A DNA stretch of 38,177 nucleotides, taken from an uncultured Nitrososphaerota archaeon. Its GTDB lineage: Archaea > Asgardarchaeota > Njordarchaeia > Njordarchaeales > Panguiarchaeaceae. The first letter of the stretch is position 1; each line of letters opens with the position of its first letter. This document shows, one piece after another, positions 19 to 33,961 of this stretch. The DNA is taken from contig CAZVPA010000001.1 of assembly GCA_964628995.1 (NCBI GenBank), forward strand, positions 26,606 to 64,782, given 5' to 3'. The notes beneath the pieces are model-generated. The model was given only the letters and a program-made list of their open reading frames with translations. It was not told the origin of the DNA and made no database searches. The translations under genes and the position numbers were made by a program.

Positions 19-393
19 GTGGCGAAGAAGGCAACATTTAGGGACATCAAAGAGGAGCTCAGATACATTGTAGAAAATTTTAACGAGGTAATGGTGCGGG
101 AGGGAGTTCTGGAAGCATTGATGGAGTTCGTGGAGGAATGGGATTTAAGGGAGTATCAAGATAAAATTGTGAATATACTCACAATGCTCGAGGAGGGGGA
201 GATAGCAGGGGGGAGTGAGGTATCCGTGATGTTCGAGCAGAGTGGTGACAGACTAACACTCGAGAGGGCTCTAGAGACAACGATATCGTCGCTTATGGAG
301 GCGGAGCCAAGAAATACCCCAAGGGGCCTATTTTATGTATATAGGTTTGGGGTGGCCAGAACTGGAAGGGTTGGGGGAGGCACAGAAGCTTGA
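19..393 (+). CDS. small protein, candidate ubiquitin-like (beta-grasp) modifier precursor; possibly 5'-truncated by the window edge
   Basis: GTG-initiated ORF whose frame stays open back to nt 1. The C-terminal ~60 aa shows a beta-beta-alpha-beta pattern by eye (VSVMFEQ / RLTLER / ALETTISSLMEA / LFYVYRF) and ends GRVGGG-TEA. It is the first gene of the E2-JAB-E1 cassette, and its stop at 391-393 overlaps the next ORF. Confidence 0.4.
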   Translation: MAKKATFRDIKEELRYIVENFNEVMVREGVLEALMEFVEEWDLREYQDKIVNILTMLEEGEIAGGSEVSVMFEQSGDRLTLERALETTISSLMEAEPRNTPRGLFYVYRFGVARTGRVGGGTEA

Positions 394-1756
394 TGTTGAG
401 GAAGCAATAAACCTAATAGTTGATTATATTAGCGACCTCACACCAATATTCATAATTGATAGGGGCCTCTATTTGCTCTCTAATGTTGATACTCTATCAA
501 ACAAGACAATAATTTTTGAGTATGGTGATGAGTCAAAAGAAATAAACTTGACGGGCCCCCTCAGCATGAAGTTCCTATCGGAGTCTCTATACGAACACCT
601 CCACATGGAGCGGCACCTAAACAGGCTTGTTGGTAGGTTGGAGGAAGAACTCAAAGAGATGATTGATGAGGACTTCTCAGTCGAGCTGATAGAATATAGT
701 AGATATGTGGAGTTCATGCTTAGGGTACTAAGAAAGGAATTTGGTGTGGATCCATCAAGAATACCGCTAGATGTCGACATGTATGTTGGTGGTAAGGGCT
801 TGGAGCAAGCCTTGATACTCATCCAGAGAGAGAAGAATAGGTCACTCCAATTTCTCCATGATTGGAGAATAGATAGGATTCTTCTTCCTCCGGAGGGAAA
901 GATCTATGTCATAACAAAGAAGGGGCTATTTGAATACTCGATTATAGAATCTGGGGATATTATTAGGATGCTGGGGGAGACAAGGAAGTTGGTAAAGGAT
1001 ATGAGATCTCTAGCGAGGGTATTATTATTGCTCGCGTGGAGGGGGCTTGAAGTAAGACGTGTGAAAAAGCTCAGTAGTATGGAGGCACAGCTAAGATCGG
1101 GGGCTATGTCCTCGGATAGATTGCTCTTAGCCCTCACACGTAAACTAGTGAGGGAAAAGCGGATAGAGTTCCCAGTAGTTGTTGAGGGTGTAAGAACAAG
1201 TATAGGGCTTAGGCTCATCAAAGGTAAGGTCTACGCATTTATCAGCTCGGGGGAATATGTTGTGAGGGAGGTGATGAATAAGAGAAAATTTGGTGTCTTC
1301 GTATACTTTCCACCAGTAGATCTATGTGTCGAGCTGGGCTCCGAGACACGCGAAGATGGTAGTGTAGTGATTTTTCCAGTAGAGTCCCCAGTAATGATTG
1401 ACGATTATCTACATCCATCCGTCCCCAGCAAGCATGGCAAAAGAACTATATGTCTCGGAAACCTCAGGTCATATGTGGACAAGATAGTTGCCACATCTAA
1501 AGATGTGGCACTGGAGGGCAAGCCAAAGGAGGTACCAGGCTTCAAGATTAGAATCTCCTCACCAGAATATGCACTAAAGGAAGTACTAACAACGGCCTTT
1601 CGTATTGTTAGGTATGGATATGTGCCAGGTGCGAATCCACATAACCATGCCGTGGATTGTACAAGTTTTAAGGGGGTAAGAATCGTTAAAAGCGAAGAAA
1701 TCAAAGAGTTAAAGGCCAGGGGAGTAGAAATAATAGATCCGCTATCGAGGAGATAG
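335..1756 (+). CDS. protein with C-terminal E2/UBC-like domain and an uncharacterised N-terminal ~285 aa
   Basis: C-terminal signature YFPPVD...VIFPVESPVMIDDYL-HPS-VPSKHGKRT-ICLGNL (His360 at nt 1412, Cys373 at nt 1451-1453) resembles the UBC motif HPN...G.ICLDIL. The true start may be TTG 371 rather than ATG 335. The stop TAG 1754-1756 lies 2 nt before the JAB ATG. Confidence 0.55.
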   Translation: MYIGLGWPELEGLGEAQKLDVEEAINLIVDYISDLTPIFIIDRGLYLLSNVDTLSNKTIIFEYGDESKEINLTGPLSMKFLSESLYEHLHMERHLNRLVGRLEEELKEMIDEDFSVELIEYSRYVEFMLRVLRKEFGVDPSRIPLDVDMYVGGKGLEQALILIQREKNRSLQFLHDWRIDRILLPPEGKIYVITKKGLFEYSIIESGDIIRMLGETRKLVKDMRSLARVLLLLAWRGLEVRRVKKLSSMEAQLRSGAMSSDRLLLALTRKLVREKRIEFPVVVEGVRTSIGLRLIKGKVYAFISSGEYVVREVMNKRKFGVFVYFPPVDLCVELGSETREDGSVVIFPVESPVMIDDYLHPSVPSKHGKRTICLGNLRSYVDKIVATSKDVALEGKPKEVPGFKIRISSPEYALKEVLTTAFRIVRYGYVPGANPHNHAVDCTSFKGVRIVKSEEIKELKARGVEIIDPLSRR

Positions 1757-1758
1757 CT

Positions 1759-2601
1759 ATGATAGTTGGTATATCAAGACATGTTATGGAGTTCTCGAAG
1801 AGAATATGTGGATATGTCAGGATGGAGTGGTATGCTTTCCCACTTGGTAGGGTACAGTGGATGGGTGATGAGGCAATATTCCTTGTTGAGGATCTCTATA
1901 TACCACGGCAGATCGCATCCAGAATGCATGTTGAGATCCCTGCGGATGTCAATGTTCAAATTATTGGTGAGTTGGATAGGCTTAGGAGTGTGGACAGGAA
2001 CATACTTCTCCTAGGTATGTGGCATAGCCATGGAGACTTAGGGGTATTTCACTCTGGGGAGGATATGAGTAATATAAGCAAGATATTCCAGGGGTTTCTG
2101 AAGTATCTTCCATCCCGCTATCATAGGGAGGAACTTATAGGGATGTTTAAGGGCAACATATATAGTGTCGAGCCAATAATAGTGGATAATATGTTCAGGG
2201 GGATAAAGTTTTCGTTTGGTGTTGCATCGATACAGATAGACTTTGATAAGCCAATAGAGAATATAGATTTCTTCGTAAGATGGTACAAGCATTTCTATGA
2301 CATAAAATGCTTCTTCGAGGTCCTAAGAGAATACTATAAGGTTGAACCAATAGTTAAGAATCTCTCAAAGAGGAAAGCATACTATCTGCTTAGTGTTGTG
2401 GTCAATAATCGAGGTGACATGTTGGCGGAGATTTTTATCCGGGAATATAGGGACTCAGAAATATCTATTGAATCCACAAAAGCAAAAATAAGGGTGGTGG
2501 ACATGAAGAAAAAGCCGTACTTTTTAACAAGAGCGAGTTTTGATGATATAATTAGAAGAATAGGGGGAGTGATGAGAACTGGGGAGCTCCCTAGTATTTG
2601 A
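1759..2601 (+). CDS. JAB/MPN+ (JAMM) metalloprotease, putative deconjugating/processing peptidase
   Basis: Complete JAMM motif: upstream Glu (DEAIFLVED) then WH89-S-H91-GDLGVFH-S99-GE-D102 (nt 2023-2064), i.e. HxHx7Sx2D. About 170 aa of uncharacterised C-terminal sequence follows. Confidence 0.85.
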   Translation: MIVGISRHVMEFSKRICGYVRMEWYAFPLGRVQWMGDEAIFLVEDLYIPRQIASRMHVEIPADVNVQIIGELDRLRSVDRNILLLGMWHSHGDLGVFHSGEDMSNISKIFQGFLKYLPSRYHREELIGMFKGNIYSVEPIIVDNMFRGIKFSFGVASIQIDFDKPIENIDFFVRWYKHFYDIKCFFEVLREYYKVEPIVKNLSKRKAYYLLSVVVNNRGDMLAEIFIREYRDSEISIESTKAKIRVVDMKKKPYFLTRASFDDIIRRIGGVMRTGELPSI

Positions 2602-2704
2602 CAGGCAGACATACCTATCCTGGTGGAACCAAGAGAAGATACATGATACATCAGTATACCTAATTGTCGATGAGCCCCTTGGTTTTATCCCAGCAATAGC
2701 GCTT

Positions 2705-3991
2705 GTGGCTGTGGGATATGGGCGTATCGTAATTATTGGGTCAAAGGAGGTGAGGGATTTCAAAATACTCTTCTACGACTATTCCGGGAATTTCCCAGTA
2801 GGCATAGAACGCTTTGTTGACATGTACCTAGGTAAATACCTAATGAACTATGGTATAGAGTTGGAACCAGTAACAATAAATCTGGCATCGAATGGGGCAC
2901 TCAATCTAGTACTTAAGATGATGGAGGATGATCCCAACGAGAGAAAGGTTATTCTAGACTTCTCAAATACCCCAGCAATAAAGATATATGTTAGGAAACT
3001 ATTCAACGAGACACACATACCCACATATGTATGCTCACTAGCCGGTGACCTCAGGATATATAATATGAAACCAATGGAGCGTGAAACCGCATTATTGCTC
3101 AGGAAGGAACATGGGGGTTTCCCGGAGATATACTCTAGAGCAGTAAAGGCACGGATGAAGGCGTTATCGGATGAGCATCTATATCTACTAGCCAGCGGCT
3201 TAGTAAGCGGAGAAATAACGATGGATATTCAAGATGAGGAAAATGAACTACATCTATCCACATACATGCTTGGCTATCCATTCAAGGAATTGGGGAGACT
3301 TAAGAGGCATTTTGGTGCGCTCAAGAAGGTTGCTATTGTGGGATGTGGGGCATTGGGAACGTTCTATGCGATACAACTGGCATTACTACAAAACATGAGG
3401 ATGTTAAGATTAAAAGAGGTAGTTTTTGTTGATCCAGATGAAATAGAGCTCGTGAACTTCAATAGACAGGTATTATTCTGGGGGGACACGATAGGTGAAC
3501 CAAAGGCCCAGGTAATGGCTGAGAGATTCCAGAGGATGGTGTACGACCCAGTTATAGTGCGTCATTATAATACGACATTTGAGGAGATTCAGAAGGAACT
3601 CACTGATGTGGATCTAATAATAGAGGGCGTAGATAGGTGGGAGGTCAGAAAGAGAATAACAAATTTTGCTATCGAGCACAAAATACCGCTCATTACCGCG
3701 GGTGTAGAAGTAATAAGGGGTCACGAAACAGTATATTTCCCAAACAAGACATACTGCCCGTATCACTCAATAAATCTTGCCGAGAAGAAAGATCCAGAAA
3801 ATCCAACCGGGTGCCTACAGATAGATCCATCAGTAATATTCTCAAACATGACAGTAGCATCACTAGCGATACTGAACTCCCTTATGCTCGAAGAGCCCCT
3901 AAATGGAGTCATGTACTACAGCCTGAAGGGGGAGTACGAGATATATGATAGATTTAAGGTCGACAGATTTAGCGGCTCGTGTGGGGACTGA
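2705..3991 (+). CDS. E1-like ThiF/MoeB/HesA-family adenylyltransferase with extra N-terminal ~205-aa domain
   Basis: Rossmann motif VAIVGCGALG (nt 3341-3358), VFVDPDEIELVNFNRQ (NFNRQ at nt 3455-3469), GEPKAQV, DLIIEGVDRWEVR, PLITAG, plus cysteines TYCPYH and NPTGC. GTG start. Confidence 0.8.
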   Translation: MAVGYGRIVIIGSKEVRDFKILFYDYSGNFPVGIERFVDMYLGKYLMNYGIELEPVTINLASNGALNLVLKMMEDDPNERKVILDFSNTPAIKIYVRKLFNETHIPTYVCSLAGDLRIYNMKPMERETALLLRKEHGGFPEIYSRAVKARMKALSDEHLYLLASGLVSGEITMDIQDEENELHLSTYMLGYPFKELGRLKRHFGALKKVAIVGCGALGTFYAIQLALLQNMRMLRLKEVVFVDPDEIELVNFNRQVLFWGDTIGEPKAQVMAERFQRMVYDPVIVRHYNTTFEEIQKELTDVDLIIEGVDRWEVRKRITNFAIEHKIPLITAGVEVIRGHETVYFPNKTYCPYHSINLAEKKDPENPTGCLQIDPSVIFSNMTVASLAILNSLMLEEPLNGVMYYSLKGEYEIYDRFKVDRFSGSCGD

Positions 3992-8832: not shown

Positions 8833-11800
8833 GTGAGGTCTGTCATCATATGTATGTTGGTAATTGTGTTGTTGTTCTATCCATATAGCCATGTAATATA
8901 TGGTCTGAGTATTGCTGGTGTGGAAAACAAAAGCATCGGTAAAGGGGATTTGGGAAGTAGGAGTTTTTCATCGGGCATTATTGATGGATCCACAAATAGG
9001 CGGTCAATAAACACCACTACTAATAGTCGGGGTGACGAGATTGGAATATTCAGGATGGAGGGAAACCTCGGGAAGCTCACAGTAAGATATAGACCAAGAA
9101 TTCAGAGAAATCCTAGGAAGTGGACTTTTATGGTGTATTTGGATGCTGATAATAACCTTGAAGATGCTGGGATAGATGATTTCTTGGAGATGAGTTCAGT
9201 AGGATCAACGGACGATGTAGCCATTGTCGTATTATTTGATAGGACACCAGACTATGTAGACTATTATGGTGATTGGTCAGAGACTCTTCTATTCTATGTT
9301 GATAGTGGAGTACTACCATATCGTGAGAATGCAGAGGCAAGTTTTGGGGAGGCAAACATGGGTAACCCCCAGACATTGGTTGATTTTGTATCCTATGTGG
9401 TTTCTAATTATCCTGCCGACCATTATGCTTTGGTTTTGTGGGATCATGGGGGTGGGTTGAGCGGTGTGTGTTGGGATGACACCAATGGTGGGGATAACCT
9501 GAATCTCTTCGAGATAAGGAATGCATTAGAGACGGTATGCAAGGAATTGGGTATAAGAATTGATGTTGTCGGATTTGATGCATGCCTCATGGGGATGATG
9601 GAGGTAGCATACCAATTGAGGGATTATGTTGATTATGTAGTTTTTTCTCAAGAAGTAGAACCGGGGGATGGATGGCCTTACAATGATATACTTGATCCCC
9701 TTGTGTCAAATCCCTCCATGAGTCCGTCAGAGCTGGCATCGATGATCGCTCAAAAATATATAGAATCATATAACGGTGGAAGCCAAGGGTCTGTCGAGTG
9801 GGTAACACAGTCGGCTATAAATGTTTCATATCTAGCATTCCATGTTTTTAGTAAGATTAACAGGCTTGTTGGTGAATTGCTGAGATATTATGATGATTAT
9901 TCGTCGGCTATTTCGTCTGCTGTTGGAGATACTGAGAGTTTCTATTATTCTTACGAGAAAGATATGATTCATTTCCTCAAGCTTTTATATGATGATGTCA
10001 GCAATGAGAGTCTGAAAGCAATTATTAATGAAACAATATACGCAATAAATGGCTCAATCCTTTATGCTGGGCATTTATGGTATCATCCAAATGCTTATGG
10101 GCTCTCAGCATATTTCCCAAACTATTACTCGGAATCTTATGATGATATATTGATGTCCTTACACCACCAATGGAGTGAGTTTGCTAAGAGATTGGGGAGG
10201 AAGTATTCTAAGCTATGGTTTTATGATATTGACTTCAGGGGTTGGGACCGTGACTCTGACGGCTATTACGAAGTTGCCAAGGTGTATATTGATCTTGATG
10301 CAACAAGTGTTGTAGAGGTAGAAGTAGTGGTGTATGGGTATGATGGATCTACGGAATACAAGCTGGGGGAGCATAGCACTACCATAAATGGGTCAACGAG
10401 TAATGATGCCTTCCTGGTTTTCCTAAAATATATCCCAACGAAATCTATATATGTACTTAGGTTTGATGTTATGATGAGGAATGCTCCCTCTAGGGACCTA
10501 TATTATTACTGTGATGATGACGTGGTGGACATACCGCTGGAGGAGGCCCCGTGGGTGGAGATAGTATATCCAGAGAACGTCTCGGTTTTCAATGTTACCT
10601 CATTGACTATCAGATGGGAATACAGCAATGCAACGCCCCTAGATCATTTCGAGATAAGTCTTAATGGCTCTGCGTGGCTGGATGTGGGTGATCAGACAGA
10701 ATACGTATTAACGGACTTAACTGAGTCCCTATATGTTTTTAGTGTAAAGGCATGGGATATTTATGGTAATATTGTAAATAGTTCGGTGGTCTTTGGGATA
10801 GACTTTACACCCCCGATGGTGAGTATTATATCTCCCCTGAACCATACTGTGGCTACATCAGTATTCGTAGACATAGTGTGGGAAGGTTGGGATAACCTCC
10901 TTATAGATCACTACCAAGTAAAGGTCGATGATAGGGAATGGGTGGATGTGGGCTTGTCGCAGAGATATACCCCAGTACTTGCTGAAGGGAGCCATGTGGC
11001 AACGGTTAGGGTATATGATAAAGCTGGATATTGGAGTGAGAGTAGGATTATATTCGTTGTTGATATTTCTGGCCCACAAGTCAAGATCAGGAATCCCCGG
11101 GCAGGTCTTAAAGTTGGCCAGGTGGTTAACGTATCATGGCTGGTGAATGATATAGCGAGTGGGGTTTCTAGAGTTGAACTATATCTGGATGATTCACTAA
11201 AGGCTGTGTTCTTGGAGGGAGTAAATATGTCGTCTTGGTTTATTATTTCTGGTCTCAGCATCAATGCTAGGCATGTGGTTAAGGTGGTCGCCTATGACAA
11301 TGCAGGATTTACTGGTTCAGATGAGATAGAGGTGGATACTGTGCCTCTTGAACTATCCATAGAGGAACCAGTTGGCAATGTTATTGTGGATAGGTCTTGG
11401 TTTATTCTAGGTTGGAGATGTAGCAGGGATACGGCTACATTCCAAATATATGTGAATGGCACGAGAATCGCCGAGGTTGTTGGAAAGAATAGTCTTAACA
11501 TTAGTCTGGGTGAGGGGGTTTGGAATGTCTCTGTGGTTGCGGTAGATATGGATGGTATGGTGTTGGACTCGAAGATCATCGTGGTCGATATTTTGGGGCC
11601 ATATATAGAGATATTGTCCCCTCAAAACAATACGGTGATCGAGTCTAGGGACCTAACGGTCAGGTGGCGGGTGGATGATATTTCTGGGGTAAAGAATGTA
11701 TCCATAAGAATAGATCAGGAAGAATGGATTAATGTTACTGGTAGGGATACGTATACGTTTAAGAATCTTACTGTCGGGGAGCATGTGATAGAACTTGAGG

Positions 11801-11973
11801 CATGGGATGGCGTAAATCACTCAAGTAAGGTTGTACTAGTAGTAGTTGTTAGAGAAGGGCTGAGTACAGGGTATGGTAGTGCTATCTGGTTAATCCTTGG
11901 TGTTCTTATAGTATTGGTATCTCTCGTGGTATTCATGATTAGAAGGAAAAAACATAGAGGAACCAGAGAATAA
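8833..11973 (+). CDS. membrane-anchored surface protein with clostripain-like (peptidase C11) domain and five Ig-like repeats
   Basis: N-terminal signal/TM segment. C11-like His/Cys dyad context: MVYLDADNNLE, VVLFDR, LVLWDHGGG, VGFDACLMG. Many N-x-S/T sequons. C-terminal TM AIWLILGVLIVLVSLVVFMI followed by RRKKHR. The start could be ATG 8851. Confidence 0.7.
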   Translation: MRSVIICMLVIVLLFYPYSHVIYGLSIAGVENKSIGKGDLGSRSFSSGIIDGSTNRRSINTTTNSRGDEIGIFRMEGNLGKLTVRYRPRIQRNPRKWTFMVYLDADNNLEDAGIDDFLEMSSVGSTDDVAIVVLFDRTPDYVDYYGDWSETLLFYVDSGVLPYRENAEASFGEANMGNPQTLVDFVSYVVSNYPADHYALVLWDHGGGLSGVCWDDTNGGDNLNLFEIRNALETVCKELGIRIDVVGFDACLMGMMEVAYQLRDYVDYVVFSQEVEPGDGWPYNDILDPLVSNPSMSPSELASMIAQKYIESYNGGSQGSVEWVTQSAINVSYLAFHVFSKINRLVGELLRYYDDYSSAISSAVGDTESFYYSYEKDMIHFLKLLYDDVSNESLKAIINETIYAINGSILYAGHLWYHPNAYGLSAYFPNYYSESYDDILMSLHHQWSEFAKRLGRKYSKLWFYDIDFRGWDRDSDGYYEVAKVYIDLDATSVVEVEVVVYGYDGSTEYKLGEHSTTINGSTSNDAFLVFLKYIPTKSIYVLRFDVMMRNAPSRDLYYYCDDDVVDIPLEEAPWVEIVYPENVSVFNVTSLTIRWEYSNATPLDHFEISLNGSAWLDVGDQTEYVLTDLTESLYVFSVKAWDIYGNIVNSSVVFGIDFTPPMVSIISPLNHTVATSVFVDIVWEGWDNLLIDHYQVKVDDREWVDVGLSQRYTPVLAEGSHVATVRVYDKAGYWSESRIIFVVDISGPQVKIRNPRAGLKVGQVVNVSWLVNDIASGVSRVELYLDDSLKAVFLEGVNMSSWFIISGLSINARHVVKVVAYDNAGFTGSDEIEVDTVPLELSIEEPVGNVIVDRSWFILGWRCSRDTATFQIYVNGTRIAEVVGKNSLNISLGEGVWNVSVVAVDMDGMVLDSKIIVVDILGPYIEILSPQNNTVIESRDLTVRWRVDDISGVKNVSIRIDQEEWINVTGRDTYTFKNLTVGEHVIELEAWDGVNHSSKVVLVVVVREGLSTGYGSAIWLILGVLIVLVSLVVFMIRRKKHRGTRE
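10555..11850 (+). repeat. five tandem ~85-90-aa Ig-like domain repeats at protein level, inside the surface protease gene
   Basis: Recurring pattern [IV]xIxxPxNxTV...[VL]x[IV]xWxxxD...[hydrophobic]xxxE[IV]xLxG..W..V......Y.F.L..G.H.[IV].V.A.D..GN....[IV][IV]..[VI]D..xP, seen five times in the translation. Confidence 0.6.
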
Positions 11974-16110: not shown

Positions 16111-16911
16111 TCATTCACTATCTTCGATCTCCACTTCCTTCGTAAGTTTAGAATGCAAGATCTTCCTCATGACCCGCCGGGGTAAGGCTACATCCTCCCT
16201 GCTCACCACAGCAGGCCGCAATAGCCTTATCCCAATACCATCCACAATGTCTATTTCCCATAGCCTTAAATCGTGATTGGTTTGTCTCATTTTTTCGATA
16301 ATTAGGTACCTCCGCAATCTTCCGCCTCTGATGAATCTCCTAAATCTTATTATACCATCCGCAACATGTTCAATACCAAAACCAAAGGCATCGCTCGTTG
16401 TTATGGCATATTGCGATGTAGCCAGAATAGTCATATTCCAGCGTGCTAATGTCCTCTTAACATAATAGGCATACTTCCGCGCCATCGCTGGCTTGTCCAA
16501 CCAAAAAGCAGACATAGAATCAATAACGACCCTAGCATGTTTATATCCAAACATCTTTTTGGCCTTTATTATCATAGAGACAAGAGTATCAACAGACAGC
16601 TTCAGTAGGGACCACTCATCAGACTTATCCCTCATAAGTCCATCAATCATTATTAGGTCCCCACGTGTCATATATTCCAGAAAATCCCAGCCAAACATCT
16701 CGGCCTGCCTAATGATGCTGTCCTTCGTCTCCTCGGTAGTAACATAGATCCCTGGTTCACCATTTTTTAATCCCTCCCATATGAAGTGCATGCAGAGAAT
16801 GGTCTTCCCGGTGCCTGGTTCTCCTGTCACAGCAACAAAGAATCTCTTGGGTATTCCGCCCCCTATCAGAGAGTCCAGTTTCGGGATCCCTATTGATATG
16901 CGTTCCAACAC
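16111..16911 (-). CDS. KaiC/RadA-like RecA-superfamily ATPase
   Basis: GIPKLDSLIGGGIPKRFFVAVTGEPGTGKTILCMHFIWEG, YVTTEE, Walker B-like RVVIDSMS. GTG start. Confidence 0.75.
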   Translation of the reverse strand: MLERISIGIPKLDSLIGGGIPKRFFVAVTGEPGTGKTILCMHFIWEGLKNGEPGIYVTTEETKDSIIRQAEMFGWDFLEYMTRGDLIMIDGLMRDKSDEWSLLKLSVDTLVSMIIKAKKMFGYKHARVVIDSMSAFWLDKPAMARKYAYYVKRTLARWNMTILATSQYAITTSDAFGFGIEHVADGIIRFRRFIRGGRLRRYLIIEKMRQTNHDLRLWEIDIVDGIGIRLLRPAVVSREDVALPRRVMRKILHSKLTKEVEIEDSE

Positions 16912-25554: not shown

Positions 25555-26403
25555 TTGAGTGAGGAGCTAGACAAGCTCGAGGAAGTCCTAGAAAAGAAAA
25601 CTAAGGAAGAACTCTATGGGGGGATCCTACCGATACCCCGGTCATCTTCTATCGAAAGAATACTTAATAGGTTAGGATATACTATCACCAAGATAGAGAT
25701 GTTTCTTAGCTCATCTGCGAATGTCCCTAAGGTGAGGGGGGGATTATTTGGTGTGTCACTACTTGTGGCACTTGGAGTATCGACTATAGACCTGCGGGTA
25801 TCGATAATACTCCTAGTATTCTTCATATTACTACATTTCCTGTTTTATCCAGATATGGTGTTCTTGGTGGGGAGGTTTTTGTCGCATGTTATTTATGATC
25901 TACTCAAGAAGGGGACAATAGCATCGATACTTACCCCCAAGGAGATTGTGGATAAGTTGAGAGCCACGGAATATGTCCTGTATGCCTCGATTCCATTGCT
26001 ATTTTTATCATTTCTGAATGGTGGACTGATCATCGCTATATTCAGGATAATAGGCATAGTAGTGCTTGTTGTTTCAGCAATAACCTATTACTATTTGAGT
26101 ACTGCGCTAGAATGTTGGGAGAACCCAACTAGAGAGATAAGAGAAAGGGATGTGCTATCCTGGAGGTTCTTCTTCTTAGTGCTAGTGTTCGTCTCGGCAT
26201 CAATATCCCTATACACAATGTTGCCACCTAAGTTTTCTAGTCTATTTGGGTGGGTGCTTACGGTACTCTCCTATGCTCTTGTCAGCACAATAATTGCTGT
26301 TCCAAGTTTTCAGGCTGCCCTCCACGTGACAACACTGTGGAGGGGTATTGACACCCGGAAACTATTTGAGGAAATAGAGAGAAGTGTTAGGTGGATGATA
26401 TGA
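25555..26403 (+). CDS. hypothetical polytopic membrane protein (about 6 TM)
   Basis: TTG start. Charged N-terminal ~50 aa, then multiple hydrophobic helices. The 3' end overlaps the next ORF by 13 nt. Confidence 0.5.
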   Translation: MSEELDKLEEVLEKKTKEELYGGILPIPRSSSIERILNRLGYTITKIEMFLSSSANVPKVRGGLFGVSLLVALGVSTIDLRVSIILLVFFILLHFLFYPDMVFLVGRFLSHVIYDLLKKGTIASILTPKEIVDKLRATEYVLYASIPLLFLSFLNGGLIIAIFRIIGIVVLVVSAITYYYLSTALECWENPTREIRERDVLSWRFFFLVLVFVSASISLYTMLPPKFSSLFGWVLTVLSYALVSTIIAVPSFQAALHVTTLWRGIDTRKLFEEIERSVRWMI

Positions 26404-26879
26404 AGGAAAAAGCATACTTAGTTGAGTCAGTGAGGAGGGGATGGCTGATGAACATTATCAATATGTATGGCCTACTGTCCATTCTCCCATATTATATATT
26501 GATAGGGAGAGGCATGATTGATGTATTAGTATATTCGCTAATACTTATATCCGCTGGATCCCTCATCCTTCTGAAGGCGTCCATCAGGCTGACCTCCAAG
26601 TTTAAGGCGAAGATGCTCAGGGATATCCAGGGGAAAAACATAATGAGATTGGCCTACGGAGGCTTCTATGGGTTTATAATCCCGCAGGTATCTCTGATAT
26701 TCATACCAATAATGATAACGGTGACGATGGCTGTCAGTATGATGGATGTCGTGATATATCTCAAGGTGGCAATAATCTCAGTGGTTCTCTTTGTGTTGAT
26801 AGTCCTATTTACATATAGGAATGTGAGGATTGTCAGTGCCAATATTCATAGGATGATTGAGTACCTGAAATCGGCCTGA
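26391..26879 (+). CDS. hypothetical membrane protein (about 4 TM)
   Basis: The ORF overlaps the upstream gene and ends 2 nt before the next start. It has four hydrophobic segments. Confidence 0.5.
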   Translation: MDDMKEKAYLVESVRRGWLMNIINMYGLLSILPYYILIGRGMIDVLVYSLILISAGSLILLKASIRLTSKFKAKMLRDIQGKNIMRLAYGGFYGFIIPQVSLIFIPIMITVTMAVSMMDVVIYLKVAIISVVLFVLIVLFTYRNVRIVSANIHRMIEYLKSA

Positions 26880-26881
26880 GG

Positions 26882-28096
26882 GTGGTAGGCATAAAGGTCT
26901 TCTGGATATTATCGAGTAAGGGTGGTGCCGGAAAAACACTGTTCACAATGTGCCTCCATAGGGCATTCTATAATACAAAACTTTTCGATCCCAGAAGTAC
27001 GATCCTTATAGATCTCAACACGCAAAATAAAGATCTATTCAATATACTCAAGAAAGTGGCTAGTGGTGAGCCGGAGACACTAAATATTGATGTCCAAGGG
27101 AGGACCATCGGTGTATTCTCTCTCAGACTTAAGGGAGAAAAGATGCGTATATTGTCTCCAATCATGTCTCCCGATCTAGCAACTCGTATAATTCTCCCAA
27201 TAAAGGTATCAGCAATCCTTGGGAGTGATGTTGCTATTGTTGATACAAACCTAAACCTACATACATTCCACACACTAGACAAGAAACGTTTGGAAGGGAT
27301 CAGGAGGGAACTGGAAATCATATGGTCGGATATGGAGGAGATAGACCCGATATTTTTCTTCATATGGACAACTGGGAGCATAACTAGGTATCTGAGCGTG
27401 TCAAAAGGCATGGATATCTTTGAAATCGAGGCGATATTTGAGAGCATAAAAAAACTGGCGTGGGTCTTTGGGAGACAATCCGATATATTCTCTATGAGGA
27501 ATATTATTGTTACAATAAACTCAACTCTATGGATATATAACACAATAACGATGCTCAGGATAATCTTGGGTAGTCTTCAGGAAAAACTGTTGAAGTCGCT
27601 ACATATGAGAGAAAATATTGCGTTATACAGCTTTACTAGGATCTCGAAGGATATCATTCTGAGGGCGTCAAAACTTACGGCTGAAATGCTGGCGGCGGTC
27701 TCTGGCAGAAAACCACTATTTAGGTATCTGGAACCCATGTATATGCTATCCCTATACCACATACTCTTCGGCGGCTCGATGGAAATATTGGAGAAAATAG
27801 TCAAGGAAGTCAAGATCCCGGAGGGACTGAGATTATTCGTAGAAAAACTCAGAGATGAGAAATCGGTGGATCGTGTGCCCCTGAACCTATATGTTGTCCC
27901 TCCGTCTCCAGATGTTCATAATGTTATGCCATTCATTTTTTCGGGTCAGCTCCTAGGAGAGAATGATATAAGGACGATACTTGGGGACGAGGACGCTGAT
28001 GAGCTCCCCTATAGACTTGTTGCAGATCAGGCCATATATCTCGCACGATACTTAGACTATTTCTTCGTTCTGAGGGAGCGTGCTGGTACTGCATGA
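26882..28096 (+). CDS. ParA/MinD-like (SIMIBI) P-loop ATPase with long C-terminal extension
   Basis: Deviant Walker A ILSSKGGAGKT (nt 26918-26938), ILIDLNTQNKD, Walker B-like VAIVDTNLN. 404 aa versus ~250 for typical ParA/MinD. GTG start. Confidence 0.6.
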   Translation: MVGIKVFWILSSKGGAGKTLFTMCLHRAFYNTKLFDPRSTILIDLNTQNKDLFNILKKVASGEPETLNIDVQGRTIGVFSLRLKGEKMRILSPIMSPDLATRIILPIKVSAILGSDVAIVDTNLNLHTFHTLDKKRLEGIRRELEIIWSDMEEIDPIFFFIWTTGSITRYLSVSKGMDIFEIEAIFESIKKLAWVFGRQSDIFSMRNIIVTINSTLWIYNTITMLRIILGSLQEKLLKSLHMRENIALYSFTRISKDIILRASKLTAEMLAAVSGRKPLFRYLEPMYMLSLYHILFGGSMEILEKIVKEVKIPEGLRLFVEKLRDEKSVDRVPLNLYVVPPSPDVHNVMPFIFSGQLLGENDIRTILGDEDADELPYRLVADQAIYLARYLDYFFVLRERAGTA

Positions 28097-29284
28097 TCAT
28101 GCCTTGAATGTGTTTATTAGGTCATCAGTCCAGAATTGCCGCATGTTTTCAATGTCCTCTTGACCAATCTGTATGCCTTCTGAGTCAAAACTTAGATCCT
28201 TTATGTGGGCCCTATCATCATAGTACACCAGTAGTAATTTTGATTGCTCTTGGACTTTTGGATCACTATTCAGTAGTTCCCTTACGATAATCGGGGAGTT
28301 TGTTAGGAATACTATTTGTTTCTTTTCATTCAGCGCTATATCCGCACTTATTCTGAATAATGCATGCTGCATTCTTGGGGACATTATGGACGGCTCAAGA
28401 ATAATCACAGTGTCTTCTCTACCCGTACCAAATAGCACGGCGAGTGTGGGGAGAAGGCTTATGAAGTCTAGGTCAAAGAAGTTCGTCTTTTTCCAAGAGT
28501 TGGAGAGTCTATATTCTATCCCGAGCGATGATGGGGGGATGTATTTCAATCTGACCGCTATATCTCCAGCCTCCCTAAGGAATGTCCCCAATCTCTGTGA
28601 GCTCTCTAGATCCGAAAATATGTCGATCAGTTTCTTAGCAGCCAACGACCTCATGCTTTCAGTCCCGAGGGATTGATATCTCTCTATGAACCAAGACCTT
28701 ATGTCGGCATAATGTATGGAATCCAGAATCCCCGATAATAACCCACTAAAATTCACGGCTGGAAAATTATTCGACCTCTCAGCGATAGTCTTCTTATCTA
28801 TCTCTATCTTCCAGGTCCATACCTCATGCCTAGCAACACTAAACATTATGTGCTCGTTAATTATCAGTCTCAGCATCGTTACCCTATCCCCAAGAATCTC
28901 CAAATATAGGTCCAAGATATCAATCCTCTTGAACTCATCGGAGTACTTATCGAAAGCAACGGGGGATGCACTAAAGAGAAGAGAGAAAAAGGATTCGTGG
29001 AGATTCTTCCTGAAGTTTCTGAACCTGAGATAAAGGATGATGGGCTTGCTTGTGCTCCCATTATACACGATCTCCTCGAAGGACCCAAAACTTATCTTTG
29101 GTGTCGTATACCTAACATTCAGATTCGACATTACTCCTCCAAGCAGGCAGGGAGCCATAAAGAGTGCGGCCTTAACGGAGGAGACGCCGAGCACGACATT
29201 TATCCTCTTGAGGCTGACATCGATACCCTTATCATCCACAAACCCATAGTTGGACACGAAAAAGTTTGTCAGCATAAGACGCAC
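28097..29284 (-). CDS. ABC/SMC-like (AAA_15/AAA_21-type) ATPase homologue with degenerate nucleotide-binding motifs
   Basis: N-terminal LTNFFVSNYGFVD...INVVLGVSSVKAALF aligns to the i.nFrsf...liG.NgsGKS pattern, but the GKS is lost. C-terminal TVIILEPSIMSPRMQHAL...QIVFLTNSP aligns to llIDEPE..LHP..Q..l...Q.I.TTHSP, with the Walker B Asp lost. Confidence 0.5.
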   Translation of the reverse strand: MRLMLTNFFVSNYGFVDDKGIDVSLKRINVVLGVSSVKAALFMAPCLLGGVMSNLNVRYTTPKISFGSFEEIVYNGSTSKPIILYLRFRNFRKNLHESFFSLLFSASPVAFDKYSDEFKRIDILDLYLEILGDRVTMLRLIINEHIMFSVARHEVWTWKIEIDKKTIAERSNNFPAVNFSGLLSGILDSIHYADIRSWFIERYQSLGTESMRSLAAKKLIDIFSDLESSQRLGTFLREAGDIAVRLKYIPPSSLGIEYRLSNSWKKTNFFDLDFISLLPTLAVLFGTGREDTVIILEPSIMSPRMQHALFRISADIALNEKKQIVFLTNSPIIVRELLNSDPKVQEQSKLLLVYYDDRAHIKDLSFDSEGIQIGQEDIENMRQFWTDDLINTFKA

Positions 29285-29353
29285 ACCACCAAGTAAAGAA
29301 ATGGAAATCAGAAAATAAAAGTATTCTCAAAATCTTACAAGTTTCACATAGTA

Positions 29354-30796
29354 TTGTGGAGATCCCCTGTGGATGAAGGAAAGTACTATCTAGAATGTAT
29401 GGGCTGCGGAGGGAAATTCAAAGATATTGAGAATCCATGCCCCCTATGCGGCAGCCAGCTATTCGTGAGATATACAGAGGTAAAACTGGATATTCGTGAT
29501 ACCCCCAGCATGTGGAGGTACATTGATCTTTTACCAATAGATACGGACTCAAGTATAGTATCCCTAGGAGAGGGATATACGCCCCTCATGAGGGCCGAGA
29601 GAATATCAAAAATACTGGGGACACAAGAACTATACCTTAAGGACGAAACGCGAAACCCAACAGGTTCATTCATCGACCGCGGGGTATCCGTAGAAATATC
29701 TAGGATTCAGCGTAGATATAAAAGGATCGTGTGTGCCACTTTAGGTGATACTGGAGCATCCCTATCAGCCTATGCTGCGAAAGCTGGGATAAAACCCATA
29801 ATCTATGCGCCAGAAAAAATAAACATCGGCAAGCTATATCAGATGCTCCTATGTGGGGCTGAGGTTCTTATCACTAAGAACTATGAGGAAGCCCTCATGT
29901 TAGCCAAGACCCATAAGACTAACGAAAAAGTATTCAGCGAGTACTCCCCGTACTATCTTGAGGGAATAAAAACCATAGCCTACGAGGTGATGGAGCAACT
30001 AAACTGGAAAACCCCAGATTTTGTTGTTGTACCCATGGGTACTGGGGGTCTAATAACGATGATATGGAAGGGAGTTAGGGAGCTCCTAGAGCTGGGCCTC
30101 ATAGAGGATACTCCAGGGCTTATTGGTGTTCAGATAGAGGGAGCGGATCCGATAGTTAGGGCGTTTAGAGGGGAGGAAACAGACTTCTTGAGGGGCAAAA
30201 CAATAGCTATAGATCTTATGGTGAGGAGACCTATGCTACAAAGATTCGCTATTAGTGCCATCAGAGAAAGCAATGGGATCGCCATAAGCGTGGAGGATGA
30301 TGTCATCCCACGGTATATAAAGATGCTTGCGGAGGGGGAAGGAATTATCGCTGAACCATCGGCGATAGTACCCCTAATCGCCCTAAAGAAGTTGCTGGAT
30401 CTTGGAGACATACTCCCAAGCGAGAGTGTGATTATTATAATAACAGGCTCAGGCCTCAAGACGATAGACTCACTCCAGGAGATCGTACCGATCGAGGATA
30501 TATCCCTGAGGCTTATGGGTATTCCAGAAAAAACCACGATAAGAAAAATTGGGGAGACAAAACTGATGATACTAAATTTGCTATCCGAGGGAATGATGCA
30601 TGGATACGAGATAAGGAAGAAGTTGAGGGAAAAGTATGGGATATCCTTAGCCCTATCGACAATATATCAGCATCTACATGAACTCATGAATTATGGGCTA
30701 ATATCCAGGGTTGGTAGGAAGACAAAAAACAAGACCAAATACTGCTACTTTCTGACGAGGTCTGGAAGAAAACTCATAGAGAAGCATGAATCATAA
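29354..30796 (+). CDS. threonine-synthase-like (PLP fold type II) domain lacking the PLP lysine, fused to a C-terminal PadR-type winged-helix domain
   Basis: N-terminal zinc ribbon CMGC...CPLC. ThrC-like EGYTPL, LYLKDETRNPTGSFIDRG (Ile107, nt 29672-29674, where ThrC has the Schiff-base Lys of SFKDRG), VVPMGTGG. C-terminal LMILNLLSEGMMHGYEIRKKLREKYGISLALSTIYQHLHELMNYGLISR is PadR-like. TTG start (GTG 29369 is also possible). Confidence 0.75.
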   Translation: MWRSPVDEGKYYLECMGCGGKFKDIENPCPLCGSQLFVRYTEVKLDIRDTPSMWRYIDLLPIDTDSSIVSLGEGYTPLMRAERISKILGTQELYLKDETRNPTGSFIDRGVSVEISRIQRRYKRIVCATLGDTGASLSAYAAKAGIKPIIYAPEKINIGKLYQMLLCGAEVLITKNYEEALMLAKTHKTNEKVFSEYSPYYLEGIKTIAYEVMEQLNWKTPDFVVVPMGTGGLITMIWKGVRELLELGLIEDTPGLIGVQIEGADPIVRAFRGEETDFLRGKTIAIDLMVRRPMLQRFAISAIRESNGIAISVEDDVIPRYIKMLAEGEGIIAEPSAIVPLIALKKLLDLGDILPSESVIIIITGSGLKTIDSLQEIVPIEDISLRLMGIPEKTTIRKIGETKLMILNLLSEGMMHGYEIRKKLREKYGISLALSTIYQHLHELMNYGLISRVGRKTKNKTKYCYFLTRSGRKLIEKHES

Positions 30797-30831: not shown

Positions 30832-32256
30832 TCAGATACCAATGAGTTTTCGTCCAGATTTACCAATGAATTTTTTGATGATCTTTGAAAGCACACCACG
30901 GGTATCGAGAATCCTTATGAATGAATCAGCCATGACATCAGCAAGCCCTTCACGTATAACTGTGTGGAGGTGTACATGTATCATTGGTTCTGGATAACCA
31001 ACGGGGCTTACATAACCAAGAATCCTAACTGTCTCAAGTGCCTTGGAGTCGGCATTTCTTCGTGAATCCAAATCGCTTCCAAGAATGTTGCGTGGATAAG
31101 TATACTGTATGACGAAATCCCTATACTTTACATATATGATACCGTACAGGCCATACTCCCCATATACCTCATCAGCTATTTCTGGAATAACACTATGTGT
31201 TGCCTTCCTGAGGTTGTTTTTCTTCCCAGTTCTTCTGGTCACATATTTTCCAGAGGCTGGTACTTCAAGCTGGCCTGTATGCATGAGATATTCTCCATCA
31301 TCCAGCGAGAAGTCTAGTGCGAATGCATCAGTGAACATTCTGAATAGTTTATGGTCAAGCTTTTTAGTTAGTATTCTGCTTTCAGGCTCTTTGTTGAGCC
31401 ATAACAATGGAACTTTTTTCCTTCTTGCAGTACTCAGGAGTCTCCTTAGTCCCTCCATCATGAAGTTTGTCTCCATGAACATCGCTATAAAGTTTATGAG
31501 GGATATTTCTCCTTCCTCTGGTATCGAAAATTTTTGATCCACCGAATCCAATATCTCTTCAATATTCCTGACATAGCTTGATAGGAACGTACTCACGATT
31601 TTTCTTGGTTCGTTAGTATCACCAAAAATATCTCTTCTTAGTATTTTGAGTGTTGTATCACTTATGGTATCGCATAGGTCTATAAATTGCTGTTCAGCAC
31701 TCCTAGCGTCATCAGTTTGGGTCTCTAGGTACTTGGTAAATATACCATAAACATCACGGTATAGGTGCTCGATCCCCCATCTCGCAGAGAGGAGTGTGGA
31801 TATGTATGAGCCATCAAGAACAGCAAAGTCAACATTGTTATTATCTATCATGTATGTGGTCGTTATGAATTCCATACCCTTCATTATATTGTTTGCACGT
31901 GTACCAACATAGAATCTTGGGATAAGTATGAGAAAACATATGTCCGGGGTCAACACATATTTCCTAACAAAGCGGGCTTTTTCTCCCCCAATCTCGAAAA
32001 GTAGTGATGAGGCTGAGAAGACAGCAACTCCTGCCCCTCTGCGTTCAGATATTGCGTTACTACCATCAGTAAAGACACCAATAACACTGTCTCCGATACT
32101 TATTTCGCTTAGTAACCCAAGCCTTATAGCATTTGGATACTTCTCACTAACAATATGCTTGAAATCTGATAGTTTCCTGAGGAGTTCGTTGGGAGACCCA
32201 ATAGACAACATACTCTTTAATCTATCCGCTATTATGTTACTCACTACTGGGATCAC
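30832..32256 (-). CDS. nurA: NurA-like nuclease
   Basis: Translationally coupled to herA by a 20-nt overlap. DGS motifs GVFTDGSNAIS and FAVLDGSYIS are typical of the NurA domain. Confidence 0.55.
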   Translation of the reverse strand: MIPVVSNIIADRLKSMLSIGSPNELLRKLSDFKHIVSEKYPNAIRLGLLSEISIGDSVIGVFTDGSNAISERRGAGVAVFSASSLLFEIGGEKARFVRKYVLTPDICFLILIPRFYVGTRANNIMKGMEFITTTYMIDNNNVDFAVLDGSYISTLLSARWGIEHLYRDVYGIFTKYLETQTDDARSAEQQFIDLCDTISDTTLKILRRDIFGDTNEPRKIVSTFLSSYVRNIEEILDSVDQKFSIPEEGEISLINFIAMFMETNFMMEGLRRLLSTARRKKVPLLWLNKEPESRILTKKLDHKLFRMFTDAFALDFSLDDGEYLMHTGQLEVPASGKYVTRRTGKKNNLRKATHSVIPEIADEVYGEYGLYGIIYVKYRDFVIQYTYPRNILGSDLDSRRNADSKALETVRILGYVSPVGYPEPMIHVHLHTVIREGLADVMADSFIRILDTRGVLSKIIKKFIGKSGRKLIGI

Positions 32257-33961
32257 CAGTGAAAAACTCAGTTATCTTCAAGCCCTTATCTCTCTTTTCG
32301 CTATCCGTTTCTTTGAGTAGTTTTCCATATCCCTCGTATAGCTGGTCTATGATCTCATCAAGGTCTTCCTCAGACAATTCCTGTGACCACTCCTCAGAAA
32401 CATTGATATCTCTACCCCCGAGCTCTATATCGATCCCAAATTCCTCCTTGGCTACATGCCTGAATAGGTCGATCTTAGCAATACATGGAATGGGAACAGA
32501 GAAGCCTGAAATTAAGGCCTCACCAACCCCAAGCCCAGCCAGAGATCTCGTAAGGTACCAAGTAATATCCTCTATCGACTCCATGATATATCTCTGATCC
32601 GAGGGATTAACAAGCCTAAGAGCGATGAGAGTACCACACTGAGCCAGAACAGTACTGGAAAGATCCTTTGGTCTCTGGGAAACAATAATAAGCCCAGTAC
32701 CAAACTTCCTCCCCTCCTTCGCAATCCTCTCAATTATACTCTTAGATGGAGCATAAGTATCCCTAGGAGCATATACATGTGCCTCCTCAACAGCGACTAT
32801 TGTTGGTATAACCCTCCCCTTAAGCTTTGCCTCCACGGTAACCCTAAAGAGGGACCTAAGTAGCATGGAAACAACCGCGGTTTGTACGTCAGATGGTACA
32901 CCTCCCAGAGCAATTATTTTGAGGCCAGGACTAATGATAGGCTCAATAACCTTCCTAAAAACAGCTTTAGGGTTATCTTTCACACTCAGACATTCACATG
33001 GGTTAAAAATGAACTCGTACTCAGCACTATATCTTGCATCCTCAAGCTTATCCAATAGGGAATCAATAGAGTCCCTCCTAGCACCGGATCTTCCGATCCT
33101 CTGGATGAGCTCTTCAATATCGAAATACCTCGGAACATCCAGATAGGCTCCCTTTATATCCCTAAGGGCCATCCTAAGGATTCTTCGTTGCGTACTCGCT
33201 TGTGTCCCCAAACCGAGTAGGGAGAACCACTCATCAATATTCAGAAACCAGTATGGTATCTCCAAGTTTTTGAGTGCATCCTTCATTTCGAGCTCCTGCT
33301 CGATTATATCGCGATACTTACCAACGGGACAATATATTGTTACTTTTCCCCGGGAAACCCTGTTTATTGCTGACAAGCCAATATATTCTGAGTGTGTATC
33401 AATAAGAAGAATCCTTGCGGCCGGGAGACCCTTGAGTATCCTAACAATAAGTGTTGCGAGGGTATTAGACTTGCCAGCGCCTGTCATTGCTAGGATGGCC
33501 ACGTGTTTTGTCGCTAATTGGTTAAGATCTAAGGATACTCGAACCTTAGGGTCGTTTGCTAGAGTGCCTATCCTTATGTGGTTCTGGTCATCTCTTGAGA
33601 ATATCTTATTTAGCTCGCTAGCACCCATGAGCTCAACGATATTTCCAGGGCTTGGTATGGCATCATATTTCCTCTCTATTTTGCCATCACCAGTAAGCGT
33701 ACCAACGACAGTAACTAAGATATCGTTCCTTCTCAAGATGAGTTCATCATAATGCTCTGGAAACATTGAGAGGGATCTTGCCTGCCTATATAGCTCGTCA
33801 GAAAGTTCGAGGGAGGCCACAATAGCGATCAGGTCCCTACCAGAATCGGTCTTGATTCTTAGGAATTGCCCTCTACGTCCAACATATTTTAGATCCTCAT
33901 CGTCAAAACTTACCCTTATATAATCTCCACGGACCTGGACTACCCGTCCCTTCACAACCAT
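32237..33961 (-). CDS. herA: HerA-type hexameric helicase/ATPase
   Basis: N-terminal HAS-barrel-like MVVKGRVVQVRGDYIRVSF, Walker A HVAILAMTGAGKSNT, LLIDTHSEY, Walker B TIVAVEEAHVYAP, GRKFGTGLIIVSQRP. Confidence 0.8.
   Translation of the reverse strand: MVVKGRVVQVRGDYIRVSFDDEDLKYVGRRGQFLRIKTDSGRDLIAIVASLELSDELYRQARSLSMFPEHYDELILRRNDILVTVVGTLTGDGKIERKYDAIPSPGNIVELMGASELNKIFSRDDQNHIRIGTLANDPKVRVSLDLNQLATKHVAILAMTGAGKSNTLATLIVRILKGLPAARILLIDTHSEYIGLSAINRVSRGKVTIYCPVGKYRDIIEQELEMKDALKNLEIPYWFLNIDEWFSLLGLGTQASTQRRILRMALRDIKGAYLDVPRYFDIEELIQRIGRSGARRDSIDSLLDKLEDARYSAEYEFIFNPCECLSVKDNPKAVFRKVIEPIISPGLKIIALGGVPSDVQTAVVSMLLRSLFRVTVEAKLKGRVIPTIVAVEEAHVYAPRDTYAPSKSIIERIAKEGRKFGTGLIIVSQRPKDLSSTVLAQCGTLIALRLVNPSDQRYIMESIEDITWYLTRSLAGLGVGEALISGFSVPIPCIAKIDLFRHVAKEEFGIDIELGGRDINVSEEWSQELSEEDLDEIIDQLYEGYGKLLKETDSEKRDKGLKITEFFTGDPSSE

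Follow-up and report, generated by a model that had tools for sequence, protein, structure and literature searches.

A lysine-less threonine synthase homologue fused to a PadR-type DNA-binding domain is a candidate regulator of vitamin B6 genes in Archaea

The DNA analysed here (the window) is a 38,177-nucleotide stretch of contig CAZVPA010000001.1 from an uncultured archaeon. At 29354-30796 on the plus strand it encodes a protein that joins a threonine synthase (ThrC)-like domain, from which the catalytic lysine is missing, to a C-terminal winged helix-turn-helix (wHTH) of PadR type. The sequence data make it reasonably probable that this gene specifies a one-component archaeal transcription factor, a repressor of vitamin B6 uptake and synthesis genes that responds to pyridoxal-5′-phosphate (PLP). 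For the family as a whole, a role as a B6-linked transcription factor is quite likely; that the window copy itself does this job is a better than even prospect. At its widest the proposal, which we hold with moderate confidence, is that this is the first transcription factor family built on a fold-type-II PLP domain. It would be the long-missing master regulator of B6 in Archaea, convergent with PdxR and sensing free PLP non-covalently, present in TACK and Asgard archaea and in a Thermococcus, and systematically mis-annotated as threonine synthase. An earlier note, made from the sequence alone, had likened the gene to MocR/GabR regulators, as a fold-type-II ligand sensor recruited for transcription. 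This idea is now supported by the co-occurrence of lysine loss with PadR fusion, a bipartition in the family tree, a conserved operator and a B6 regulon.

The open reading frame (ORF) is intact and, from its TTG start, encodes 480 amino acids; public gene calls begin at GTG 29369 and give 475. ORF and Pfam analysis divide it, all on the plus strand, into a zinc ribbon, a lysine-less ThrC-like PLP fold, a linker and a PadR-type wHTH. The N-terminal Cys4 ribbon (29396-29449; C15, C18, C29 and C32) has Cys columns that are nearly invariant in the family alignment (A1), and the nearest archaeal true ThrCs carry the same ribbon. It is followed by the fold-type-II PLP (PALP, threonine-synthase-like) domain at aa 69-365 (29558-30448; PF00291, E 2.5e-63), the proposed ligand-sensing module. 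This domain matches ThrC structures in the PDB at E 1e-54, and Foldseek aligns it with 2zsj, 6nmx and 1uim at a target-normalised TM-score of ∼0.85. An AlphaFold2 (AF2) model of the protein has a mean predicted local distance difference test (pLDDT) score of 84.9 and a ThrC-like body. Residues 367-394 (30452-30535) are disordered in this model, with pLDDT <50, and probably form a flexible linker.

The C-terminal domain at aa 401-479 (30554-30790) is a PadR-type winged helix, as the earlier note had recognised. PadR (PF03551) matches aa 406-476 with E 2.4e-11 and 43.9 bits, well above the gathering cutoff of 27, and is the sole DNA-binding domain that Pfam finds in the protein. The AF2 model gives this region the topology H-H-H-E-E-H at pLDDT 75-93, and the PDB matches of the isolated domain are to the PadR-family structures 8jxk, 3elk, 5dym and 5x11. 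The recognition helix (aa 434-446, 30653-30691) reads LSTIYQHLHELMN, which is the type associated with the G1 operator described below. The window protein thus has the zinc ribbon, the non-Lys PALP domain and the C-terminal wHTH with the pattern ..YQHL.EL..GL.. that together make up the proposed family.

Residues 101-110 of the window protein read NPTGSFIDRG. HMMER alignments to the solved ThrCs 2zsj and 6cgq match Ile107 (ATC, 29672-29674) exactly with the catalytic Schiff-base lysine of NPTGSFKDRG, in agreement with the earlier note. The same substitution runs through the family: the 120 best database homologues all combine PALP with PadR and lack Lys in the motif. The earlier note had suggested surveying homologues for a coincidence of lysine loss and PadR fusion. 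In an alignment of 258 homologues guided by a hidden Markov model, among them the 150 best representatives of 50%-identity clusters from an exhaustive search, the two co-occur almost perfectly: 178 proteins have PadR and a non-Lys residue, 72 have Lys and lack PadR, and five are exceptions. Two of the five keep Lys with PadR (P0165 and P0187), and three lack both, of which two are truncated fragments; in three further PadR-bearing fragments the column itself is missing. The column is K in 72/72 of the nearest unfused ThrCs. Among the 178 fusions it is mostly hydrophobic (I 94, L 36, V 25, M 7), with R in 7 and T in 4. A single bipartition of a neighbour-joining tree separates 71 of the 72 Lys-bearing unfused ThrCs from all fusions.

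The two lysine-retaining fusions come from a Bathyarchaeota cluster of 62 members (P0165) and from Lokiarchaeota (P0187). Both group with the subfamily that has Arg at the lysine site, and could represent either intermediates in evolution or variants that bind PLP covalently.

The lysine column is the only one that splits fusions cleanly from the nearest ThrCs. The earlier note had also pointed to the loops CATLGDTGAS and PMGTGG. Both are present in the window protein, but as signs of a dead site they are not diagnostic: the nearest Lys-bearing ThrCs also differ among themselves there, the Arg201 equivalent included, and the altered loops fall largely within that variation.

Beyond the lysine, the residues that surround the cofactor are kept in the fusions. 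Asp108 and Arg109 are present in 178/178, as are Asn/Asp132 and Gly231 of the G-x-G-G phosphate loop; Gly131 is kept in 176, Phe106 and Thr364 each in 173 and Glu334 in 170. We take these residues to contact the PLP ring and phosphate, as in ThrC structures, and the cofactor pocket accordingly appears to be retained throughout the fusion clade. In the window protein the glycine-rich PLP-phosphate loop is GTGGL (30038-30052), against a family consensus of G-[STN]-G-G-[LH], and Thr364-Gly365 of the TG.GLK motif (30443-30448), on the pyridine-N side of the pocket, is kept in ∼97% of the family. The loop GDTGAS (29744-29761) is the counterpart of ThrC GNTSAS and has Asp132 where ThrC has an Asn that presumably contacts the PLP O3′. 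Asp132 is a minority state, and the window protein has it and the GDTGAS signature in common with the relatives at loci L009 and L089, which are linked to energy-coupling factor (ECF) transporter genes.

The genes beside the fusions point to vitamin B6. When one genome was scanned for each prokaryotic species, 587 relatives came up, true ThrCs included; 80 loci were kept, 45 with a fusion and 35 with a true thrC. Linkage was scored as a PF07155 ECF S-component (ECF-S) gene or pdxS-pdxT within 700 bp. Such a B6 gene accompanies 38/45 fusions, an ECF-S in 36 and pdxS-pdxT in two, versus 0/35 true thrC loci (Fisher p = 5e-16). Seven fusion loci have neither, and in three of these the gene lies at a contig edge. 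The arrangement recurs in different lineages: the regulator is divergent from a complete ECF operon (S, A, A′, T) in Korarchaeota-like loci and from the ECF-S in Hodarchaeota, whereas Bathyarchaeia have the order regulator then ECF-S. L008 has pdxS-pdxT divergent from the regulator and, immediately past them, an ECF transporter. The closest ECF-linked relatives of the window protein, P0007 and P0008 (48-49% identity; loci L089-L091), are likewise divergent from a complete ECF operon. Three S-component subtypes each match a single PDB chain, 4hzu_S, with E-values of 1e-14, 3e-10 and 1e-5. This is the chain of HmpT/PdxU2, an S-component for which transport of pyridoxamine has been demonstrated (PMC4860826); PdxU and PdxU2 are members of PF07155/COG4720 (PMC9997740).

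These loci share a conserved operator at promoter positions. Divergent-type loci have in the intergenic region an inverted repeat, G1, with the consensus TATATARG-N6-CYTATATA (22 bp, 8-N6-8 geometry), in the form ATATATAAG.TT..AGCCTATATATAGG; its right arm ends 4-13 nt ahead of the regulator start codon. An identical G1 element precedes both ECF-S and pdxS, and the same operator lies 5′ of pdxS-pdxT at L008, L061, L143 and L154. In Bathyarchaeia a second form, G2, stands between the regulator and the ECF-S. This is a 22-bp palindrome, TAGTATAGTTATAACTATACTA, of the same 8-N6-8 geometry, sometimes doubled; its arms, TAGTATAG-N6-CTATACTA, lie immediately 3′ of a TTTAAATA-like box and upstream of the ECF-S. 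Two features of the protein change together with the operator type, namely the first residues of the recognition helix and the amino acid at the lysine site: G1 loci combine a hydrophobic residue with an [ST][IV]YQHL helix, and G2 loci combine Arg (NPTNS[FY]RDR) with MTRAAIYQHL. The window protein belongs to the hydrophobic/G1 subfamily, with a recognition helix and wing of G1 type. Across ∼1 Mb of fetched loci, G1 and G2 motifs occur almost exclusively at promoter positions, and thrC loci contain none.

The operator also finds the regulator when the search is made blind. An exact scan of 241 million metagenome records with the 26-nt pattern TATATARGN6CCTATATATAGG returned 101 stretches. Among the 80 of these that were listed, the regulator adjoins the motif in 62, an ECF-S is found in 59 and pdxS in three. 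At L166 (4955-5918) an orphan G1 operator stands 24 bp upstream of a gene for a 304-aa ECF S-component (PF07155), and the several kb around it contain no regulator gene. Regulator and target can therefore be unlinked, and trans arrangements exist.

GNAT acetyltransferase genes adjoin the regulator or operator in unrelated lineages, at L004 (5200-5913), L006 (4118-5270), L008 (3315-3902) and L123 (2851-3276). A further gene beside the regulator or operator, at L092 (3-818), is GNAT-like by motif only. At L004 and L005 the G1 operator lies between the regulator and a pair of GNAT and EamA transporter genes. The recurrent GNAT genes may be additional members of the regulon.

Taken together, these features suggest the following mechanism. 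The ThrC-derived fold-type-II domain, having lost its Schiff-base lysine, would sense free PLP or a close B6 vitamer; with the lysine gone, the cofactor would be bound only reversibly and without catalysis. The protein would probably dimerize through its enzyme-like domain, as ThrC does. In the window subfamily, the two C-terminal PadR-type winged helices of such a dimer would bind the 22-bp repeat TATATARG-N6-CYTATATA at the TATA/core promoter. Binding would stop transcription of the PdxU2/HmpT-like ECF S-component, of pdxS-pdxT and of the gene for the regulator itself, in all likelihood when the cell has ample PLP. TATA-like half-sites within the core promoter suggest, by the usual archaeal mechanism, that promoter occlusion would bring about this repression, autoregulation included. 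The window copy, unlinked from its targets, would on the simplest reading act in trans on targets elsewhere in the genome.

Several observations weigh against this proposal, some of them against the family's role and others against that of the window copy. Some PF07155 members also transport riboflavin. HmpT itself was first assigned to hydroxymethylpyrimidine (PMC4860826), and on these two grounds the B6 specificity of the archaeal S-components is only an inferred one. That PLP is a co-repressor rather than an inducer, and hence the sign of the regulation, is likewise presumed. The conservation of the half-sites could stem partly from promoter elements and not from an operator. The pocket of the window protein could be altered, given Asp132 in place of Asn and the low model confidence at aa 102-104. 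The window itself lacks the expected partners: Pfam finds no pdxS, pdxT or ECF-S among the 30 ORFs scanned, and tblastn with PdxS, PdxT, ECF-S and CbiQ gave no match. Nor does it contain a family operator, consensus and position weight matrix (PWM) scans of the 38 kb both staying at chance level. Finally, the closest clade, P0002-P0006 (54-55% identity), is not beside B6 genes but in unrelated, non-conserved neighbourhoods. One member follows a GNAT-like gene (the motif was read from the translation) and one follows Zn-ABC transporter genes; P0003, P0004 and P0006 lie on short contigs without B6 genes. The window copy could thus be a paralogue with other targets.

A first alternative keeps the architecture and changes the ligand, which would be an amino acid or a ThrC-related metabolite (threonine, homoserine, O-phosphohomoserine), a PLP-amino-acid aldimine or the thiamine precursor hydroxymethylpyrimidine. 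It draws on the descent of the sensor domain from ThrC, on the original assignment of HmpT (PMC4860826) and on the Thi4 genes that lie a few kb away in Korarchaeota-like loci. We consider it unlikely. The occurrence of one operator 5′ of pdxS-pdxT at four loci, as well as the conservation of the cofactor ring and phosphate residues, argues for PLP, and none of the 45 fusion loci examined has a linked threonine-pathway gene. PLP, one of the ligands named in the earlier note, is most likely the one sensed, being favoured by genomic context; nothing points to the other two that it named, O-phosphohomoserine and threonine.

A second alternative, which also seems improbable, accepts the family's role and removes the window copy from it. 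Here the window protein would be a neofunctionalized paralogue without a B6 function, with targets such as the degenerate-ATPase cluster upstream or the NurA-HerA pair downstream. The absence of B6 genes and operators from 38 kb and the variable, non-B6 neighbourhoods of the closest clade would fit. So would the 48%-identical, ECF-linked P0008, which comes from the same metagenome sample (ERZ27248328) at similar G+C; its presence there makes a second paralogue in the window genome possible. However, the recognition helix and wing are of G1 type, and a local target is made less likely by the lack of a conserved neighbourhood in the nearest relatives. The 69-bp intergenic region that the gene shares with its divergent neighbour (29285-29353) was proposed by the earlier note as a likely operator site, and this was not borne out: neither an inverted repeat nor a family operator is found there. 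The best PWM score anywhere in the window is 6.0, versus at least 21.6 for 83 true sites, and shuffled sequences reach 11.3. No evidence emerged for a regulatory link to the divergent gene. Orphan operators, moreover, show that trans arrangements occur, and since the window has neither a B6 gene nor an operator, a B6-regulating window copy must act in this way.

The highest-scoring operator-like sequence in the window, TATCTAGGATTCAGCGTAGATA at 29697-29718, has the 8-N6-8 form with three mismatches to G1 and the PWM score of 6.0 just given. It falls within the coding sequence of the regulator itself; shuffled sequences score as high, and it is probably due to chance.

It is very improbable that the window protein is still an enzyme, whether a ThrC or other PLP enzyme acting through another residue or a bifunctional protein like RbkR or BirA. 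Its annotation would suggest so. It is called 'threonine synthase' in all sources, as are homologues from Asgard and TACK metagenome-assembled genomes (MAGs), and with 181.6 bits it passes the curated 167.1-bit cutoff of the thrC equivalog TIGR00260, so that pipelines give a protein without the lysine this label. Against full-length ThrC models, however, it falls below the cutoffs. Among curated models NF004170 (PRK05638) alone covers the protein from end to end, aa 13-477 to positions 2-440 of 442, with 301.4 bits and hence less than the cutoff of 421. This alignment includes the PadR region, so the architecture has already been catalogued, under a name that asserts an enzymatic function ruled out by the missing lysine. 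The Schiff-base lysine is absent from 178 of 183 PadR-fused homologues, and no replacement for it is found. The lysines that the fusion clade conserves (positions 96, 160, 206, 239 and 369) are all just as conserved in true ThrCs, so a different lysine at the PLP position, which the earlier note had named as a possible refutation, is ruled out. Lineages with fusions also hold ordinary Lys-bearing ThrCs, for example Bathyarchaeota L031. With its catalytic lysine absent, the window protein is not a threonine synthase (EC 4.2.3.1).

An artefact, be it a faulty read, as the earlier note had considered, a faulty assembly or a pseudogene in decay, has nothing in its favour except the unusual residue and can be dismissed. 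The gene has an unbroken frame, and assemblies made independently contain the identical protein (ENA ERZ27248328, contig k141_165928, which is the same locus, and Logan SRR7051321); locus L095 is 99.8% identical to the window. The substitution, moreover, is family-wide, under evident purifying selection across several archaeal phyla.

The proposed B6 regulators are widespread in Archaea. In the species-representative scan, Asgard hosts belong to Thor-, Hel- and Promethearchaeia, and fusions were also found in Korarchaeota/Crenarchaeota-like MAGs, Bathyarchaeia (many), Nitrososphaerota, Hadarchaeota and Methanomethylicota. Plain ThrCs appeared in Methanosarcina, Methanobrevibacter, Methanoperedens and others. 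The best genome match, at 45% identity, is from a Crenarchaeota/Korarchaeota-like MAG. A cultured organism, Thermococcus chitonophagus, has a 441-aa member with Arg at the lysine site (WP_068578498), which is of the same kind as the proteins that NF004170 describes. A full-text literature search of incomplete coverage returned no account of a ThrC-like/PadR family or of an archaeal B6 regulator, and the family is seemingly undescribed.

The nearest functional parallel is in the bacterial MocR regulators (PdxR, GabR and TauR), which likewise join a PLP-fold domain of enzyme origin to a DNA-binding winged helix. PdxR controls pdxST, pdxK and the transporter gene pdxU (PMC5320631), the same kind of target as the genes beside the archaeal family. 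The construction differs. MocR proteins place a GntR-type wHTH at the N-terminus and use a fold-type-I, aminotransferase-like domain with its PLP lysine, whereas the window protein has a C-terminal PadR-type wHTH and a fold-type-II (PALP/ThrC) domain without the lysine. MocR/PdxR regulators are also reported to be absent from Archaea (PMC5320631). The family has none of the MocR hallmarks, namely the GntR-type domain, fold type I, the retained lysine and bacterial distribution, and the resemblance is convergent, not homologous.

Archaeal zinc-ribbon ThrCs (NF006050/PRK08197, TIGR00260) are alike in fold, in the Cys4 ribbon and in nearly all motifs, at 35-42% identity. They differ in having the catalytic lysine and no added wHTH, and the context of the window family is B6 transport and synthesis, not threonine biosynthesis. 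Canonical PadR proteins consist of an N-terminal wHTH followed by one or more dimerization helices, and sense phenolic acids or drugs directly. The window protein shares with PadR (PF03551) the wHTH signature, the nearest solved structures and a palindromic operator with two 8-bp arms. Its wHTH, however, is C-terminal to a ∼390-aa sensor and has only one short helix after the wing, and membership holds at the domain level only.

Archaea offer precedents for the logic of an enzyme turned vitamin regulator. ThiR, for thiamine, is an archaeal enzyme-derived vitamin regulator of this type; to our knowledge, Archaea lack the bacterial riboswitch or regulator for the vitamins in question. RbkR, for riboflavin, pairs the fold of a vitamin-pathway enzyme with a DNA-binding domain to control archaeal synthesis and uptake genes (PMC5397151), and is reported to retain its kinase activity. 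The family proposed here differs from RbkR and ThiR in the vitamin, the enzyme fold and the DNA-binding domain, and from RbkR also in having lost its catalytic residue. An enzyme-derived, cofactor-sensing transcription factor is thus of a known kind; new are the fold, the DNA-binding domain and the proposed non-covalent sensing logic.

Upstream of the regulator gene are four consecutive ORFs without a Pfam or NCBIfam match (25555-26403, 26391-26879 and 26882-28096 on the plus strand; 28097-29284 on the minus strand). The last of these, the divergent neighbour of 395 aa, resembles, by eye, an ATPase of AAA_21/ABC type whose Walker A motif (GVSSVKAA) is degenerate. The block 25555-29284 is conserved at L095 and L096 and is not beside other family members. 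Convergent with the regulator gene is a pair on the minus strand (30832-33961), a NurA-like nuclease gene (weak PF09376, 21.5 bits) overlapping a HerA helicase gene (DUF87 and HerA_C) by 20 nt. Farther away, 335-3991 (plus strand) contains an unknown ORF of 473 aa, a weakly matching JAB/Prok-JAB protein (1759-2601) and a ThiF/E1-like protein (2705-3991), which could together make up a module for ubiquitin-like conjugation or of defence type. The product of 8833-11973 (plus strand), a clostripain-family (Peptidase_C11) protein of 1046 aa that has bacterial Ig-like domains at its C-terminus, is probably a secreted or surface protease. In the segment 13632-16911 a gene for a protein of 743 aa, which has the central domain of HerA (DUF87) and matches nSTAND3 weakly, adjoins a KaiC-type ATPase gene (16111-16911, minus strand).

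If the proposed reading is right, hundreds to thousands of archaeal genes named threonine synthase encode proteins that cannot be enzymes, and reconstructions of threonine biosynthesis in uncultured archaea, Asgard included, are distorted as a result. The family would give a concrete and testable answer to how PLP synthesis and uptake are controlled in Archaea that have no MocR/PdxR. It also supports a vitamin B6 role for the archaeal PF07155 ECF S-components, a field described as poorly studied (PMC9997740). The predicted non-covalent PLP-binding domain and the defined 22-bp operator together make a candidate PLP biosensor. Finally, the family would be a clean natural example of an enzyme becoming a sensor by the loss of a single catalytic residue, and its two operator and recognition-helix subtypes, together with the rare lysine-retaining intermediates, could be used to reconstruct that transition.

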